A stretch of 64,000 nucleotides of DNA from positions 26,667-90,666 of IMG/VR virus record IMGVR_UViG_3300020185_000024; one strand, written 5' to 3'. Source of the DNA: a virus. The position numbers and the translations under genes were made by a program. Position 1 is the first letter of the stretch. Every line of letters begins with the position of its first letter. This document shows, piece by piece, positions 23,315-30,617 of the stretch. A model generated the notes under the pieces. The model was not told where the DNA came from, did no database searches, and saw only the letters and a program-made list of their open reading frames with translations.

Positions 23315-25839
23315 TGGTAGAAAAAGCACCTATATATAAAGCACCTAATGGCGCAAAAGTTATTCAACATGTTGGCTCTATTTATGGAGATACTTTGTTA
23401 GATGACATTACTGTACCTAGTCAAAATGGTAGAGTAGTACAACCTGGAAGGTGTGTAAAGGGAGATGTAGGTAATGCTACTGATATTCAAATAAATCTTT
23501 CTAGCTCTACAACAGATGCTATTTGGATAGGCGAAATCTATCAAAAAGTTGTATTTTTTGCAGACTCATCTCAGACTCACAACTATATACTTAATATAGA
23601 GTCATCTGCCAGTGCACCCGCTAGAGTTTACTATAGAGGTACTGACGGAGTAATGGCATGTAGAGTTCTTGGTGTTACAAAAAGTATAAGTGACACAGTC
23701 AATTTAGATGAATGGAACACTTTTGAATTTTGGTTTAGTAATACAGAAGCTATTGTTGTGATAAATAGTGGAACTCCAGAAGTAATAGGTACTCATACCA
23801 CTACAGCTAATTATAATTTTCATATTTTTAATAATACTTTATTAGCTTATAAAAGTAACTACACTCCTGCTAAAGTATCAGAATACTTAGTTAGGAATGT
23901 AACATTAGGCATAGATTTAATTCATTGGGTTTTTGATGAAGGGAATGGAGATACTATACATAGTATTGTAGATAATGGATTAGGAACAAATGATGTAACT
24001 GGAACTATAATGAATAGGCAATCCGATACTTGGGTAGAAGATGGAACTATATCTAGTAGTTATGTTAATGATAATGGTTATACGGATAATCTAGGAATAA
24101 TAGTCCCTGCTGCTTTAAATTCAAGTACGCTAGATGCTTTAGGGAATACTCTTGAATATTCTGGCAAAACTTCTTATACGCCTAAAATAGTTAATCAACC
24201 TTGTTTAACTTCTGATGGTACACAAACATTATCATTTACAAATTTAACAGGTATAAACATAGTTTCTTATGAGGGAACTTCTATTGCTAGTAAAAGTGGA
24301 AATACAATTACACTAACTCCTGGTACAATATATAATTTAATTTTAGATGATGGTACTCTACTACCTTTACAAGAAAGTGATGGACGCACAGCTTATGCAA
24401 TAGGTGGTACAGCAGGAAATGCAACTATTATTAATTACTTAGCTACTAATTGGACAGATAACACGCAAGATAGTTATGCTAGAAATGCTTTATTAGGCTA
24501 TAATAATATGTCTTCTTCTGGTAAACTATTTACTGATTTTACAAATGATTTAGGAGGTGTAGATTACGCTAGTGGTAGTGCTTTAACTCTTTCGCATGAC
24601 GTTATAAATGGACTACTTAGATTAGAAAATTCAGATGTTAATTCTTATTTATATTTAAAGCCTAATAGTAGTATTGCTTCAAGTGGCCCGTCTAGGTGGG
24701 TATTTAAAATTAAATTTACAACTGGTAGAGGGAATGGTAGTTTTAAATTACTTGCTGCAAATACTAGCTCTTACGCAATAACATTAAATTATACAGATGG
24801 GGTTTGGATGGAGTTTGATATTAATCCCCCATTTACTTATATAAATACTACCCAATGGAGAATAGAGCCAGTAGGAGGGATGTTGGTTGGAGATGTAATT
24901 GAAATGGATTATTGGTATATTGCCAATATTGGTAAAGTTTCAGTAAAAACTTCAAATGTTTATGAAGATGCTTTAGGTAATACAGCTTCTCACCCTAATC
25001 CTGGAGGTAGAAAACTTTTAGAAGGAATAGATTTAAAACTTAATCCTAATAATGCTCCTGCTTTAGTTCAGGCAGGTATTACCGACACTACCATTATAGG
25101 AAGTGAATATGGTAAAAATAATAATATCATAAATGGTGAAAATATTTCAAGAGACATTATAGTATATGATAATCCTCCAGATTTTCCTAGAAATTACTGG
25201 GATGAATTTAGTTTTAAGGGTGGCTTAGTCTATCCAAATACATCAGGAACTTATACTAAAATGGCAACTAACTTCATTAATGGTTCTGATTGGTCATTTT
25301 CTGGTTGGTTTATTTTTTCTTCTATTTCGGGAGTACGTTTAATTGGAAGCAGTTTTGGTTCTTCATTTGTTTTTTTAACAAACGCTTCTATATTAAGAGT
25401 AAATCAAGCTGGAGCAAGTGACTTATCTTTTTCAGTATCTATTCCCTTAGACACTAAAGTTCATATTGGAATAAGTGTTATTGGATTACAAACTAAAGTT
25501 TATGTTAATTCAGTAGAAAGTTCTACTGGTGCTTTAACTGCCACAGATAGCGCTCAAAATTCTTTTGATAGATTTGGGGCAACGAATAGTGGAGTAGCTC
25601 AACAAATTAATGGAGTTCAATCTGAAACTGCTTTTTGGAATACTGGTTTATCCCAAGACGAGTTCAAATATCTTTTTAATAAAGGAAGAGGAAGGTACTC
25701 AAATAAAATAAAAGAAGGTAATCTTGTACATTGGTGGGATTTTAATAGCTTGAAAACACCTACAACTGTAGAAGATTTAAAAGGTATTAATACTTTAACT
25801 TTAAAATCTTTTCCTACTGAAAAAATAGTAAACTTTTAA
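23314..25839 (+). CDS. Putative receptor-binding protein with LamG/concanavalin-like domains
   Basis: HWVFDEGNG; C-terminal WSFSGWF...VHIGIS...KVYVN...INGVQSETAFWNTGLS...LVHWWDFN is a LamG-like signature. Confidence 0.65.
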   Translation: MVEKAPIYKAPNGAKVIQHVGSIYGDTLLDDITVPSQNGRVVQPGRCVKGDVGNATDIQINLSSSTTDAIWIGEIYQKVVFFADSSQTHNYILNIESSASAPARVYYRGTDGVMACRVLGVTKSISDTVNLDEWNTFEFWFSNTEAIVVINSGTPEVIGTHTTTANYNFHIFNNTLLAYKSNYTPAKVSEYLVRNVTLGIDLIHWVFDEGNGDTIHSIVDNGLGTNDVTGTIMNRQSDTWVEDGTISSSYVNDNGYTDNLGIIVPAALNSSTLDALGNTLEYSGKTSYTPKIVNQPCLTSDGTQTLSFTNLTGINIVSYEGTSIASKSGNTITLTPGTIYNLILDDGTLLPLQESDGRTAYAIGGTAGNATIINYLATNWTDNTQDSYARNALLGYNNMSSSGKLFTDFTNDLGGVDYASGSALTLSHDVINGLLRLENSDVNSYLYLKPNSSIASSGPSRWVFKIKFTTGRGNGSFKLLAANTSSYAITLNYTDGVWMEFDINPPFTYINTTQWRIEPVGGMLVGDVIEMDYWYIANIGKVSVKTSNVYEDALGNTASHPNPGGRKLLEGIDLKLNPNNAPALVQAGITDTTIIGSEYGKNNNIINGENISRDIIVYDNPPDFPRNYWDEFSFKGGLVYPNTSGTYTKMATNFINGSDWSFSGWFIFSSISGVRLIGSSFGSSFVFLTNASILRVNQAGASDLSFSVSIPLDTKVHIGISVIGLQTKVYVNSVESSTGALTATDSAQNSFDRFGATNSGVAQQINGVQSETAFWNTGLSQDEFKYLFNKGRGRYSNKIKEGNLVHWWDFNSLKTPTTVEDLKGINTLTLKSFPTEKIVNF

Positions 25840-25841
25840 CA

Positions 25842-26387
25842 ATGAAAGCAATAATACATACACAAAACATAGCATCTCTAATGACATCAGAGGTTGTGAA
25901 AGACCAACTTCTTTTTGGACTTATTCTTAATTTAATAGGGGCTCAGACTAATGGTGGTTTACCTAAAGAACATATTCCTGGAAAATTAGTATTTCCTAAC
26001 ATAGATAATAATGACTGCCCTTTAAGTTATTATAAAACATTTTATAATGAAGATAAAGTAACTATGAGCGAGTATCCTTTGTTCATATATGCTCCAATAG
26101 CATTTTTAGAAACAAATGTATTTACAGGTTTACCTAATGCTACTACATTTGATGAAAATGATAATGAAGTTTCAGTTAAATGGAAAGATTGGAGAGCTGA
26201 TGAACATTATACTCAACCTTTATATAAAAATGAAACTCATTGTATTATAAGCTGTCAGTCTTTTGGTAAATACTTAACAGAAGCTGAAGTAGCAAATATT
26301 ATTTCCAATGAAGAAAATTCTGGAATAGAGCTATTAGGAATAAACGAACTTAATGCTAAACTTAATTTATTTATAGAAGAAGAATGA
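25842..26387 (+). CDS. Hypothetical protein (possible fibre assembly chaperone)
   Basis: Follows the RBP gene; function inferred from position only. Confidence 0.5.
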   Translation: MKAIIHTQNIASLMTSEVVKDQLLFGLILNLIGAQTNGGLPKEHIPGKLVFPNIDNNDCPLSYYKTFYNEDKVTMSEYPLFIYAPIAFLETNVFTGLPNATTFDENDNEVSVKWKDWRADEHYTQPLYKNETHCIISCQSFGKYLTEAEVANIISNEENSGIELLGINELNAKLNLFIEEE

Positions 26388-26884
26388 AACTATCAGAAAT
26401 AGAAAATAACATCCGACATGGAGACATCATATTAATAAGAAAGAACAGGTTCATAAGCAAAGCTATTTGTACTTGGACCAATTCTTTCTTTAGTCATGTA
26501 GGCGTAATAGTCAAACATGGAGATAAATGGTTTATAGTAGATTCTAATGAGAAAGGAGTAGATATAGATCCTTTGGTTCGCAGACTTGAAACTACAGAAG
26601 CAGTTAGCATATTGAGACCTAAAGCTTCAAAAGTTAAAATCAATAAAGCAGTTAAAGAACTAGAGAAGTTTACAGATACTAAAACTCCCTATGATTTTTT
26701 ATTGTTTTTAAGAATTGCTATAGAAACAGCTATAAAAGTGAAACTAAATTTTAACACTAAAGGTTTTACTTGTTCAGAGTTCTCAGCATTATATCTATCT
26801 TTGTTGTCTTTTAATCACGGGTTAAAAGAAAATTGTATACCTCAAGAGTTTGCAAAAGTATCACAACTTAAAAAAATAATATAA
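26384..26884 (+). CDS. Permuted papain-like NlpC/P60 enzyme (YiiX/YaeF family)
   Basis: HGDIIL ... FSHVGV (catalytic His) ... PYDF ... FTCSEF (catalytic Cys after His, permuted order). Confidence 0.85.
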   Translation: MKLSEIENNIRHGDIILIRKNRFISKAICTWTNSFFSHVGVIVKHGDKWFIVDSNEKGVDIDPLVRRLETTEAVSILRPKASKVKINKAVKELEKFTDTKTPYDFLLFLRIAIETAIKVKLNFNTKGFTCSEFSALYLSLLSFNHGLKENCIPQEFAKVSQLKKII

Positions 26885-26997
26885 TGAGTAGACTAAAAGA
26901 GCTAAAAGCAACAGAAAATGCTTATACTGATAGCAATTATATAGAAAGTAAAAATGATAAATATTACTTAAGTACCGCAAGAATTTTAAAACAATAA
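26884..26997 (+). CDS. 37-aa small ORF (MSRLKELKATENAY...), not in ORF track
   Basis: Exactly fills the gap with TAATG overlaps on both sides. Confidence 0.6.
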   Translation: MSRLKELKATENAYTDSNYIESKNDKYYLSTARILKQ

Positions 26998-27368
26998 TGA
27001 TGAATTTACTATTTTTTTCTCTTGAACAAATTGTAGAAGCTGTATCTACTATAGGTTTATCTGCAACTTTAATATTATTGTTAGTAGGAGGATTAATACT
27101 CGGCATATGGAAAAGTGTTCCTATACTATATGACAGAATAATCAACAAACAAGTAGAAACTGACGAAAAACAAAATTTGACAATTAAAGAGCTAGAAGAA
27201 AAAGTCATAGCTATTCAAATAGAAACTCAAAGCATATTAAAAGATATAGCCTCTAATAAAGATATTTCTGATGAAAAACATACTTCTTTGATCACTAGGT
27301 TAATAGCTTTAGAGTTAGCAGTTACTAAATTGACTGATTACATATTAACAGCTTCTTTAAATAAATAA
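26997..27368 (+). CDS. Holin-like membrane protein (single TM plus coiled coil)
   Basis: Hydrophobic IGLSATLILLLVGGLILGIW, heptad C-terminus, upstream of the endolysin; starts Met-Met. Confidence 0.5.
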   Translation: MMNLLFFSLEQIVEAVSTIGLSATLILLLVGGLILGIWKSVPILYDRIINKQVETDEKQNLTIKELEEKVIAIQIETQSILKDIASNKDISDEKHTSLITRLIALELAVTKLTDYILTASLNK

Positions 27369-27372
27369 ACCT

Positions 27373-27822
27373 ATGAAAGAATTATCTTTACATGAAAAGG
27401 TAGACTTCATTATAAAACAAGATGTTTTAAAAAGAGTAGCACCTATATCAGAAAAAGAACAATTAGAATTAATTGATAAACTTTGCGATGGATATAGCGT
27501 TATAGATGTTAGCTGGACAGGACCATCTTATAGTATAGACCAAAAACTTTCTTTATCTTTTTATGAAAATATAGGCTACACAAAAGAAGACATTGAATCT
27601 TATCAAAATGGAACTTTTGATAGAGCAGATAAAAAAGCTTTAAATACTCTAGCATTTGATTTAAAATATACTTTAATGAATAATAAAGTAAGTAAAGGAA
27701 ATTTAAATGTTAAAAGAGAAAATGAAAATAAAATAGCACATGTAATGTATAAATATTGTCCTATTAAAGTAGATAGTCGAGGAAGAGTAACTAAAATTAT
27801 AGGAGTCCAATATATATTGTAA
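27373..27822 (+). CDS. Stand-alone PAS/PAC-like domain protein
   Basis: DGYSVID ... SFYENIGYTKEDI ... VKRENENKIAHV.YKYCPIKVDSRGRVTKIIGVQY resemble the PAS 'n.af..l.Gy..eel' and PAC 'r.kdG...wv.....pird..G.v..iiGv..Di' motifs. Confidence 0.6.
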   Translation: MKELSLHEKVDFIIKQDVLKRVAPISEKEQLELIDKLCDGYSVIDVSWTGPSYSIDQKLSLSFYENIGYTKEDIESYQNGTFDRADKKALNTLAFDLKYTLMNNKVSKGNLNVKRENENKIAHVMYKYCPIKVDSRGRVTKIIGVQYIL

Positions 27823-27823
27823 T

Positions 27824-28291
27824 ATGAAACTAAGTAAAAACTTATCATTAAAAGAAGTAATTAAATCTAACACCGCTACTAAATACGGCATAGATAATAA
27901 CCCAACTGCAGAGCATTTAGATGCTTTAAAAAATATTGCTATTAATGGTTTTCAACCTTTAAGAGAAGGATTAGGAATGCCAATATTTGTATCTTCAGGA
28001 TATAGATCTCAAGCATTAAATGATAGAATTGGAGGAAGTAGTACTTCTCAACATTCTAAAGGAGAAGCTTTAGATGTAGATGCTGACGTATATGGTATAA
28101 TTACCAACAAAGAAATATTTGATTACATATATGCTAACATAGACTTTGATCAATTAATCTGGGAATACGGAAATGATAAAGAACCAGATTGGGTACATTT
28201 TTCTATGAAGCTAAAAGGCAAAAATAGAAAAGAAGTTCTTAAGGTTAAAAAAGTAAAAGGTAAAAGCATATACAGTCACTTTAAGCCATAA
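27824..28291 (+). CDS. Endolysin, peptidase M15 (Zn metallopeptidase)
   Basis: SSGYRS, SQHSKGEALD (H-x6-D) and WVH zinc ligands. Confidence 0.9.
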   Translation: MKLSKNLSLKEVIKSNTATKYGIDNNPTAEHLDALKNIAINGFQPLREGLGMPIFVSSGYRSQALNDRIGGSSTSQHSKGEALDVDADVYGIITNKEIFDYIYANIDFDQLIWEYGNDKEPDWVHFSMKLKGKNRKEVLKVKKVKGKSIYSHFKP

Positions 28292-28295
28292 ATAA

Positions 28296-28940
28296 ATGAT
28301 AAATTTAGATTTAGGAAATGTAATTAAAGCTTTACTTCCAGTTGGATTAGGAGCATTATTAATGTTCTTATTAATGCAAACTTGTAATAGCAATAAAGAA
28401 AATGTTGTAATATCTTCAGATAGTACGCTAACCATAATTTCAGATACTATTATAAACATAGATTCTATAATAACTTCTGTAAATAATCCAACTATCATTG
28501 ATACATTACATGATACAAATTATGTAGATCGTTGGTTAAAACCTGAAAGTATCCATGACACAATTAAAGATAGCATCTTTATTCGTATTCCTGTTTTGGT
28601 ATATTCTGATACCATTAGAACAAACAGTAATAATACCTTATGGTATAAAGCTATTGTGGAAGGAGAACTTAGAAAAATAGATTTAGGAGCTATTATTTCA
28701 GATACTATTATCAGAGATACAGTTAAAATTGTAATTAACAATATCGAAGATAAAACAGACTTATATATAGGAGCAAGACTCAGATATGATTTTATAGGCA
28801 GTAATATAGACCAGATAACTATTCCTTTAGATTTAAATTTAAAGAACAGCAAATGGTCTTTCAATGTTTCACCTGGCTATAATATTGCAAATCAAGGATT
28901 TACATTAGGCGGAGGAGCTTCTTATAAGCTAGGCAAGTAA
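28296..28940 (+). CDS. Spanin-like envelope protein
   Basis: N-terminal TM ending in Cys, D(S/T)-rich stalk, amphipathic C-terminal beta strands; directly after the endolysin. Confidence 0.55.
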   Translation: MINLDLGNVIKALLPVGLGALLMFLLMQTCNSNKENVVISSDSTLTIISDTIINIDSIITSVNNPTIIDTLHDTNYVDRWLKPESIHDTIKDSIFIRIPVLVYSDTIRTNSNNTLWYKAIVEGELRKIDLGAIISDTIIRDTVKIVINNIEDKTDLYIGARLRYDFIGSNIDQITIPLDLNLKNSKWSFNVSPGYNIANQGFTLGGGASYKLGK

Positions 28941-28955
28941 ATAAGTATTTTTTAC

Positions 28956-28963
28956 TACCTTTG
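28956..28963 (+). promoter_or_regulatory. Putative -7 promoter element (TACCTTTG)
   Basis: TAnnTTTG match in the intergenic gap before the phosphoesterase. Confidence 0.6.
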
Positions 28964-28988
28964 TTATATTATTAATTAAAACTAAAAT

Positions 28989-29906
28989 ATGAATTTAGAG
29001 CAAGTAATAAGGAAAATGGAAGTCAATAAAAGTTATTTAGAAAATGGCGCAGGTTATTTATCTAAAAAATTTAATTGTCGACCTGACATAATCAAAGAAG
29101 CAAAACAAATAATAAGAAATAAAAGAAAGACTCCAGAAATTAACGAAGATTTATTTAAAGAATTTTTAGAATATGCTAACGCTAAAAAGAAAGATCAACC
29201 TAAAAAGAAAAAGAAACAAAAACAATTGCCTCAGCCTTATCAAGGAGGAGATATAGATAACGTGTTAGTAATAGGAGACTTGCATGAACCATTTTGTTTA
29301 GAAGGTTATTTACAACATTGTAGACATGTACAAGAAGAATTAAACTGTGGAACAGTTATATTCATAGGAGATGTAATAGATAATCATTTCTCTAGTTATC
29401 ATGAATCAGATCCTGATGGATTTGCTGCAGGTCAAGAACTAGACAGAGCTATAGATAAAATAGCAGATTGGCATAATGTATTTCCCAATTCTACAGTTCT
29501 CATAGGTAATCACGATAGACTAGTATATAGAAAAGCTACCACAGCAGGAGTATCTAGAAAATGGGTGAGAGACTTAGATGAAGTATTGGAAACACCTACT
29601 TGGACTTTTGTAGAAGAAGTTAATCTTCATGGTAACAATTACAATCATGGAGAAGGCGGTACAGCAAGAAATAGAATGAAAGTAGAACATCAGTCGCAGA
29701 TACAAGGACATTTACATTCTCAAGCTTATGTAGAATTTTCTGTAGGACCAGATACTAGAATATTTGGAATGCAAGTAGGATGTGGAATAGATAGAAAATC
29801 TTACGCTATGGCTTATGGGAAAAACTTTAAAAAGCCTATTATATCTTGTGGCGCAGTCTTAAATAAAGGACAACACCCGATAGTAATACCAATGAACTTA
29901 AAATAA
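28989..29906 (+). CDS. Calcineurin-like metallophosphoesterase with N-terminal HTH-like extension
   Basis: GDLH, GDVID, GNHD, HG and GHLH motifs all present. Confidence 0.88.
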   Translation: MNLEQVIRKMEVNKSYLENGAGYLSKKFNCRPDIIKEAKQIIRNKRKTPEINEDLFKEFLEYANAKKKDQPKKKKKQKQLPQPYQGGDIDNVLVIGDLHEPFCLEGYLQHCRHVQEELNCGTVIFIGDVIDNHFSSYHESDPDGFAAGQELDRAIDKIADWHNVFPNSTVLIGNHDRLVYRKATTAGVSRKWVRDLDEVLETPTWTFVEEVNLHGNNYNHGEGGTARNRMKVEHQSQIQGHLHSQAYVEFSVGPDTRIFGMQVGCGIDRKSYAMAYGKNFKKPIISCGAVLNKGQHPIVIPMNLK

Positions 29907-29912
29907 AAAACA

Positions 29913-30617
29913 ATGAGTGATATCACACCTAACAAGATTATATTTGCTACTAGAGAAGACATTAGGAGTTTATCTGATGATTCTAATATAGATGATAGAA
30001 ACATTCTATTTGAATGGAACAATCAAAGAGCATTATACCTTAGAAGAAGTCTAGATGCTAATAGCAGAATAATAGACGAAACCCTTATTCAAGATTTAGG
30101 CTGTGTGGAATTAGAATTAGCTCCTGCAGAATCTTGTTGTGATTTTGATAGCACTTGTAAAATAATAAGAACAAAGAAAGAAATTCCTGCTCCACTTTCA
30201 CTAAGAGGTGCTACAGGATTAACCAGGATAGGCTCTATAGATAAATTTTATAGAAACTATTCTATAGTAACTTACGAGAAAGCTTTATACTCAGGCAATG
30301 GAAGAGCTTCTCAACTTGCTGTATATGGTTTTTACTTAAATGGTAGAGTGCATTTAGTATCTAAGAACCCATCATTGTACAGACAAAAATGGATTAATAT
30401 CAGAGGACTATTTGAAAATCCAGAAGATATCAGCTCATTTACCACCTGTGATGGAGATCCATGTTTTACATGGGACAGTCCATATCCTATTACAGCAGAT
30501 ATGGTGGCTATATTAAAACCAGAAGTAGTTAAAATATTATTACAGAGATATTCTGTTCCTACTGACAGTTCTAATAATTCTAATGATGACACAGGTAAAG
30601 TAGTAGCAGGTAGATAA
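29913..30617 (+). CDS. Putative tail ring protein
   Basis: IRGLFENPE and YPI motifs; syntenic with crAss-like ring genes. Confidence 0.65.
   Translation: MSDITPNKIIFATREDIRSLSDDSNIDDRNILFEWNNQRALYLRRSLDANSRIIDETLIQDLGCVELELAPAESCCDFDSTCKIIRTKKEIPAPLSLRGATGLTRIGSIDKFYRNYSIVTYEKALYSGNGRASQLAVYGFYLNGRVHLVSKNPSLYRQKWINIRGLFENPEDISSFTTCDGDPCFTWDSPYPITADMVAILKPEVVKILLQRYSVPTDSSNNSNDDTGKVVAGR

Follow-up and report, generated by a model that had tools for sequence, protein, structure and literature searches.

The open reading frame (ORF) 27373-27822 lies in a 64,000-nucleotide (nt) stretch of the virus record IMGVR_UViG_3300020185_000024 (positions 26667-90666 of the record, hereafter the window) and encodes a stand-alone protein with a predicted PAS fold, placed between the genes for a single-pass membrane protein and an endolysin. 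The product is tentatively read as the cytoplasmic, output-less PAS half of a two-gene, membrane-anchored lysis-cassette protein, which would act in a holin or holin-regulator pair and gate the release of the endolysin; our confidence in this reading is somewhat short of even. The evidence is drawn from the arrangement and conservation of the gene, from structure prediction, from the topology of the membrane partner, and from a family of proteins, represented by g078 of Cellulophaga phage phi14:2, in which a membrane helix and a PAS domain are fused in a single polypeptide.

The PAS gene and its conservation

The arrangement described in an earlier note on this DNA was borne out by the ORF coordinates and by the Peptidase_M15_3 match of the downstream product. 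The 149-amino-acid (aa) frame is separated by 4 nt (27369-27372) from the upstream membrane-protein ORF 26997-27368, of which the TAA stop codon occupies 27366-27368, and the M15 endolysin ORF starts at 27824, 1 nt past the stop codon of the PAS gene. The PAS protein is predicted to be cytoplasmic, since neither a hydrophobic or membrane segment nor a signal peptide was detected by Kyte-Doolittle hydrophobicity, and, because it has no membrane segment, its sequence indicates that it cannot be a holin alone. The absence of any Pfam match at E<=1, together with the absence of a hydrophobic segment, agreed with the claim that it carries no output domain.

Two relatives of the protein were found, P0001 (94% identity, 149 aa, on a 98.8-kb contig) and P0002 (39% identity, 154 aa, E 1.9e-25), and no further ones in phage records, IMG/VR or the metagenomes of JGI. 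A third candidate, P0003, was set aside as a 33-residue local match inside a 1171-aa surface protein. All members of the family (3/3; 149-154 aa) are stand-alone proteins. In an independent marine run (X3), a 718-base contig spans 27004-27721 with zero differences and zero gaps, and the stop/start junction is therefore real and not the accident of a single-sample assembly. With all three members stand-alone and the junction identical in a second run, the split state is, to judge from these sequences, stable. In a marine metatranscriptome (X19; 9/30 bins covered), no identical piece was found over the PAS gene, and its expression is thus not shown there; the sole identical piece, a 156-base contig, corresponds to 28095-28241 inside the M15 endolysin gene, where carry-over of DNA is possible.

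Predicted fold of the PAS protein

The structure of the protein was predicted with AlphaFold2 using the alignment of the three family members (predicted local distance difference test, pLDDT, 74.4; predicted template modelling score, pTM, 0.69), and a single-sequence model (pLDDT 42) was discarded in favour of this run. The model contains strands at 40-49 and 52-59, helices at 61-65, 71-78 and 87-103, and strands at 107-114, 121-133 and 139-148, and this predicted succession matches the order of the PAS core (A-beta, B-beta, C/D/E/F helices, and G/H/I-beta), with the N-terminal helices ahead of it. The motifs that had been called PAS-core-like and PAC-like fall at predicted PAS elements of the model: the DGYSVID motif is its first strand (40-49), the SFYENIGYTKEDI motif spans the helices 61-65 and 71-78, and the PAC-like stretch spans the last three strands.

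When the model was compared with the PDB by Foldseek, at least 123 chains were matched at E<=1e-3, and among the matches listed all were LOV or PAS proteins, led by output-less 'short LOV' proteins. With VIA-align, 8 of 48,161 representative chains were matched at Z>=8 and 166 at Z>=5, where Z values of 7-8 are frequent for unrelated models; the best match was a LOV domain (6hmj; Z 10.2, root-mean-square deviation 2.5 A, 96 residues), and the best 50 of the 166 were all PAS or PAS-like sensor domains. The separate model of the ESM Atlas gave template modelling scores of 0.56-0.64 to clusters, with a PAS family named in 9/10 structure rows, and its matches include a viral stand-alone PAS cluster of 141 aa. 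In BFVD, most of the best rows were PAS or sensor-kinase proteins, including small proteins of uncultured marine phages that are named 'PAS domain' or 'histidine kinase', and a weak match was obtained to the holin of Proteus phage phiP4-3 (E 0.067). On the side of sequence, P0002 comes near the Pfam cut-offs of PAS_3 (24.5 bits; cut-off 25.6) and PAS_9 (24.2 bits; cut-off 27), and the top match of a 3-sequence profile against the PDB, a weak one, was phototropin-2 LOV1 (2z6d; E 0.21, residues 60-147). The proposal of a PAS-like domain made in the earlier note is upheld by these lines, and the predicted PAS fold of 27373-27822 is regarded as well supported.

The cysteines of the window protein, C38 and C129, are both absent from P0002. 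No LOV adduct residue is available because no cysteine is conserved among the 3 family members. Moreover, the flavin-contact, cysteine and neighbouring basic positions are unmatched in a low-confidence alignment to phototropin-2 LOV1 (2z6d). From these residues, the protein does not appear to be a canonical LOV flavin photosensor.

Membrane partner and topology

The product of 26997-27368 contains one strongly hydrophobic stretch within residues 11-45 (score 2.5, Kyte-Doolittle), in agreement with the single transmembrane segment previously assigned to it, and its lysine and arginine residues (K/R) occur after the helix, with none before it. Only weak family matches were obtained (phrog_937, E 0.0015), no relatives were found in IMG/VR or phage records, and its neighbours in the ESM Atlas are unnamed viral clusters (score 0.92). 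Neither this protein nor the PAS protein matched a holin family in Pfam or PHROG. A coiled coil had also been proposed for the upstream protein, and this was not confirmed by a crude heptad test, in which 42/200 and 14/200 shuffles reached the observed score.

When K/R were counted, the 15 residues after the helix exceeded the short N-tail in 55/55 helix-bearing sequences, among them the window 123-aa protein. By the positive-inside rule, this bias predicts an N-out/C-in orientation, with the linker and the PAS domain in the cytoplasm. Among the five ORFs in 26384-28940, a membrane segment occurs only in 26997-27368 and 28296-28940. The M15 endolysin has no signal or signal-anchor-release (SAR) segment as judged by hydrophobicity, and lacking an export signal it needs a hole-former. 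The product of 26997-27368 is therefore a candidate for the membrane half, or holin-like anchor, of a split pair.

The fused membrane-helix and PAS family

The g078 product of phi14:2 ('PAS fold protein', NC_021806, YP_008242302) is 209 aa long and consists of a helix at 7-27, a helical linker and a PAS_4 domain at 95-198 (22.8 bits; cut-off 23.1). In phi14:2 the genes that come next encode the GH19 endolysin g077, the membrane-anchored g076, a metallophosphoesterase, a structural protein and IHF, and the gene order of the window from 26997 to 29906 is that of phi14:2 from g078 to the metallophosphoesterase. The two ORFs of the window, which lie in different frames and encode 123 and 149 aa, together supply the parts of g078 in the order found there; the combination of a predicted N-out helix, a helical linker and a C-terminal PAS domain beside an endolysin is present in the window only with both ORFs taken together.

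Relatives of g078 occur in the Chryseobacterium jumbo phages MA9V-1 and MA9V-2, two genes past a GH108 gene, where the PAS-bearing gene is followed by a one-helix protein and then by a protein whose N-terminus is of lipoprotein type and which has a helix at its C-terminus. In MA9V-2 the latter (L002 4999-5631; 210 aa; two genes after the PAS-bearing gene) has, with its C-terminal membrane helix, the build of a unimolecular spanin. Other relatives were found at 22 IMG/VR loci, in two bacterial genomes (a Maribacter strain and a Cyclobacteriaceae metagenome-assembled genome), and as 35 database proteins of 170-230 aa, most of which have PF08448 on record. No output domain is present in the g078-type fused proteins, and their PAS part contains many invariant polar residues. 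The helix-plus-linker parts (L001 5887-6516, L078 3946-4566, and L099 5001-5609) match PHROGs 2658 and 8369 (labelled 'hol-like chemotaxis', a label whose origin is not traceable) and 3671 (unknown) at E 1e-5 to 1e-3.

The loci were clustered at 90% identity into 20 fused clusters, two PAS-only clusters (L096/L097; Brevundimonas jumbo phages) and a helix-only ORF (L046). A recognised cell-wall hydrolase lies within three genes of the PAS-bearing gene in 9/20 fused clusters: GH19 in phi14:2; GH108 in MA9V and, with PG_binding_3, in L095; Peptidase_M15_3 in L078/L079, L080 and L084 (partial, at a contig end); a PHROG 435 amidase endolysin in L052 (E 4e-33); Phage_lysozyme in L099 (E 9e-39); and Amidase_2 in L100. 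In two more clusters, DUF5675 is encoded directly 3' of the PAS-bearing gene (L081 649-1257 and L085 5572-5988). With DUF5675 counted, adjacency to a lysis enzyme is found in 11/20 fused clusters and for seven enzyme families, on podo-, sipho- and jumbo-type contigs and in two prophages, and the figure is a lower bound, as the neighbours were scanned in part. The link to lysis genes suggested in the earlier note is thus supported by the neighbourhoods.

In the helix-only ORF (L046 4753-5079; 108 aa; E 6e-8 to the N-terminal profile), the helix-plus-tail module is found by itself, immediately past an amidase endolysin with 68% identity to that of L052. A change of endolysin family beside a neighbour that stays is a pattern known for holins and their partners. 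Because the endolysin family changes in this manner while the PAS-bearing gene stays, the neighbourhoods argue for a functional tie to lysis over chance, as far as gene order can indicate.

Two clusters were not judged, one (L086) because its contig stops at the gene and the other (L089) because of TGA codons. In L089 (1910-2476), two in-frame TGA codons fall exactly at tryptophan positions of the family and the frame ends in a double TAA; with translation table 4, a complete fused protein of 188 aa is obtained, and this phage may read TGA as tryptophan. As for DUF5675, it is grouped with C82-type peptidase lysins in a 2026 preprint, and its presence in the endolysin slot of L081 and L085 fits the lysin proposal made there.

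Proposed mode of action

In the proposed mechanism, the 123-aa protein would be inserted N-out/C-in, so that its helical tail would lie in the cytoplasm together with the PAS protein, and the latter may dock on this tail via its N-terminal helices. The pair would act as a holin or as an antiholin-like holin regulator, and the PAS domain would tie the release of the M15 endolysin, itself devoid of an export signal, to a cue inside the cell, that is, a metabolite or the redox or energy state. As a wider and more doubtful proposition, Bacteroidota phages (crAss-like, sipho-type, jumbo and prophages) might share an undescribed lysis-cassette part, made of an N-out helix and a helical tail, which would occur alone (L046), with a PAS domain (g078 family) or with a separate PAS protein (window), and which would gate or delay hole formation on an intracellular signal.

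Weighing of the evidence

A number of observations weigh against the proposed role, and they are considered here together with the explanations that they would favour. The first concerns the relation of the window pair to the fused family, which was not detected at the sequence level: nothing was found by BLASTP, hhalign gave a probability of 0.14-0.18, and in hmmsearch with a 57-sequence fused-family profile the PAS protein reached E 0.14 and the membrane protein only a 6.3-bit low-complexity match in the expected register. As no sequence homology was detected, the split reading rests on architecture and position; that the window pair is a split form of the fused protein is plausible from the same parts, the same order and the same genomic slot. 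The suggestion in the earlier note of a split sensor lacking its kinase held in so far as architecture and slot are those of the fused g078; a kinase is present in none of the proteins, as HisKA and HATPase_c were absent from the six ORFs in 25842-28940 and from the scanned neighbours of the fused family.

The alternative that survives best, although we hold it to be unlikely, is an accessory gene unrelated to lysis, whose PAS protein would meddle in host signalling by pairing with the PAS domain of a host sensor kinase or by soaking up a metabolite, and which would stand beside the endolysin through the accumulation of accessory genes. The stretch between tail-fibre and lysis genes is a usual landing place for such genes, and the PAS protein has no output domain. 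No hydrolase was recognised among the scanned neighbours in 7/20 fused clusters (L077, L082/L083, L087, L088, L091, L092/L093, and L094). The PAS-only relatives of the Brevundimonas jumbo phages lie near tRNAs, PhoH and deformylase, away from lysis genes, and L096 is near a packaging gene. A related 89.7-kb crAss-like contig (L019) lacks the PAS pair but still has the M15 endolysin along with the membrane protein and phosphoesterase, and the module is therefore dispensable. Against an accessory gene stand the tight packing of the window genes, with gaps of 4 nt and 1 nt, and the position of 11/20 clusters beside seven hydrolase families, which would be unlikely by chance given one endolysin per 50-270 genes.

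Two further points bear on the part that the PAS protein would play within a lysis cassette. The cassettes of L052, L078 and L080 already hold a separate small two-helix holin-like ORF; the PAS-bearing protein therefore need not be the holin and may be a regulator. In addition, no ligand-binding residues or cofactor motif could be named in the window PAS protein. PAS domains are often dimerisation modules, and the protein could be a ligand-free adaptor, with no sensing, that only binds protein and keeps hold of the M15 endolysin or the membrane protein, or escorts it, up to the time of lysis. The absence of a cofactor motif and of a conserved cysteine, together with the flavin-contact residues unmatched in the weak LOV1 alignment, would accord with such an adaptor, but the endolysin partner varies in family while the PAS-bearing protein stays, which argues against specific endolysin binding, and the invariant polar residues in the PAS part of the fused family also speak for more than an adaptor; we therefore consider this explanation quite improbable.

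A spanin-like, envelope-spanning component, with the helix and stalk as an analogue of an i-spanin and a periplasmic PAS-like domain cooperating with the product of 28296-28940, appears very improbable. An N-terminal membrane helix with a long helical region is indeed the build of an i-spanin, and an anchored beta-rich protein is found beside the endolysin in the window, phi14:2, L052, L019 and L099. However, the charges predict C-in in all 55 helix-bearing sequences, the opposite of the i-spanin topology (N-in anchor and periplasmic coiled coil, with an outer-membrane lipoprotein as partner), the separate PAS protein of the window has no signal peptide, the PAS gene is located upstream of the endolysin, and L019 retains the beta-rich protein without the PAS pair. 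Lastly, that the protein is not PAS at all, and the fold call an artefact of a thin alignment, is hardly credible: Pfam yields nothing for the window protein at E<=1 and PHROG nothing useful, the alignment behind the model comprises 3 sequences only, the single-sequence model was poor, and Z 7-8 is common among unrelated models, but the Atlas model, the 3-sequence AlphaFold2 model, the near-threshold PAS matches of P0002 and the LOV1 top profile match agree as independent lines, all listed Foldseek and VIA rows are PAS-type, and PAS or sensor-kinase proteins make up the majority of the best BFVD rows.

Phage context and neighbouring genes

The virus record comprises 90,666 bases, with a completeness of 92% (CheckV). 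Nearly all genes of the window are on one strand, its G+C content is about 31%, and it contains three giant ORFs (2074, 2092 and 1390 aa). By nucleotide comparison, the sole named relative is Cellulophaga phage phi14:2 (Crassvirales, Steigviridae), to which the stretch holding the metallophosphoesterase and a structural gene (g075-g074) is 71% identical. Metagenome runs containing the stretch are of marine, estuary and marine-sediment origin, and 6 runs contain at least half of the sampled words. The window is a marine crAss-like phage, and its host, deduced indirectly, is most likely a member of the Flavobacteriia. No integrase turned up in the 64-kb window, in which no search aimed at integrases was made. 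No terminator-like site was found within 25500-30000, and promoter-like sites were at chance level (26 observed against 24.9 expected) in a sigma-70 scan, which may not suit this phage.

The features of the region are listed in Table 1. The amidase 26384-26884 may or may not belong to the cassette, and could be a second wall- or lipid-active enzyme. The product of 28296-28940 gave only a weak match to DUF6808 and no BLASTP similarity to phi14:2 g076. A beta-rich, membrane-anchored protein of 184-214 aa adjoins the endolysin in the window and also in L001 (7063-7641; phi14:2 g076), L052 (5314-5868), L019 (5375-5965) and L099 (4409-4999), and this protein may serve to disrupt the outer membrane when Bacteroidota phages lyse the host. 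The metallophosphoesterase has 70 related IMG/VR loci; a g078-type gene is present only in that of L052 and a helix-only module only in that of L046, and a relative of the window PAS protein in 0/70.

Table 1. Position and properties of the PAS gene and its neighbours (coordinates of the window)
Feature	Position	Strand	Length (aa)	Properties
Permuted papain-like amidase (Peptidase_C92, YaeF/YiiX type)	26384..26884	+	166	PF05708 E 1.5e-9, 38.6 bits; PHROG 1128 E 5.9e-15
Single-pass membrane protein	26997..27368	+	123	Acidic N-tail, hydrophobic helix ~16-38, charged helical tail
Stand-alone PAS-fold protein (predicted)	27373..27822	+	149	ATG start; N-terminal helices ~6-37, PAS core 40-148
Endolysin, Peptidase_M15_3	27824..28291	+	155	PF08291 E 1e-18, 67.9 bits; PHROG 894 'endolysin' E 1.5e-32
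Membrane-anchored beta-rich protein, spanin-like slot	28296..28940	+	214	N-terminal hydrophobic segment 6-31
Metallophosphoesterase	28989..29906	+		Synteny anchor common with phi14:2 g075; no part in lysis

Significance and comparison with known systems

Lysis timing sets burst size and phage fitness, and the known regulators (such as RI and RIII of T4, and S107 of lambda) answer superinfection or membrane energisation. If the proposed role is correct, marine and gut-related Bacteroidota phages would read an intracellular chemical or redox cue to time the burst of the host, and lysis would be signal-gated at the holin level in virulent phages. The lysis genes of Bacteroidota phages are poorly known, and a membrane-helix module found beside seven kinds of endolysin would be a practical marker for their holins. 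The annotation of g078 as a PAS protein is already in the public record; no literature linking PAS domains with lysis cassettes, or studying the function of g078, was found in a search that left subscription papers and supplements outside its scope.

A phage PAS sensor that ties host killing to a small molecule is described for VqmA_Phage of vibriophage VP882 (PMC8284805). The structure of VqmA_Phage with DPO (7dwm) matches the window model with Z 6.9 (rank 49 in VIA). Unlike the window protein, which has no DNA-binding part and is encoded among lysis effectors, VqmA_Phage has a DNA-binding domain and acts as a transcription factor on the lysogeny-lysis switch. The short LOV proteins (PpSB1-LOV, W619_1, PF5-LOV and RsLOV), which are the best structural matches listed, resemble the window protein in being PAS proteins that have no output domain, are about 130-180 aa long and are flanked by helices, but they are bacterial, bind flavin, have a conserved cysteine and are encoded outside lysis cassettes.

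In T4 lysis inhibition, the holin T is regulated by the antiholins RI, in the periplasm, and RIII, in the cytoplasm (PMC11413866 and PMC8385771). As in the window, accessory proteins are encoded with or near the lysis genes, and those of T4 bind the holin and shift lysis timing on a signal (PMC11413866 and PMC8385771). In T4, however, the large domain of T is periplasmic and the signal is superinfection, whereas the window sensor is predicted to be cytoplasmic and of PAS fold, and there is no sequence relation between them. A GAF-like domain, which the earlier note had ascribed to T, was not confirmed, since neither 'GAF' nor 'PAS' occurs in PMC11413866.

The closest counterpart is g078 of phi14:2, with its relatives in the MA9V phages. 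The window shares with it the slot of the related crAss-like phi14:2, after the tail genes and directly before the endolysin, with a membrane protein and a metallophosphoesterase following, and also the build, in which a membrane helix followed by K/R leads into a helical linker and an output-less PAS domain. It differs in that g078 is one polypeptide of 209 aa whereas the window has two ORFs (123 + 149 aa) with no detectable sequence similarity to it, and in that the endolysin is GH19 or GH108 in phi14:2 and MA9V, and M15 in the window. Since the fused form is present in a cultured system, phi14:2 and Cellulophaga baltica #14, the idea that a PAS-bearing membrane protein gates lysis is directly testable.

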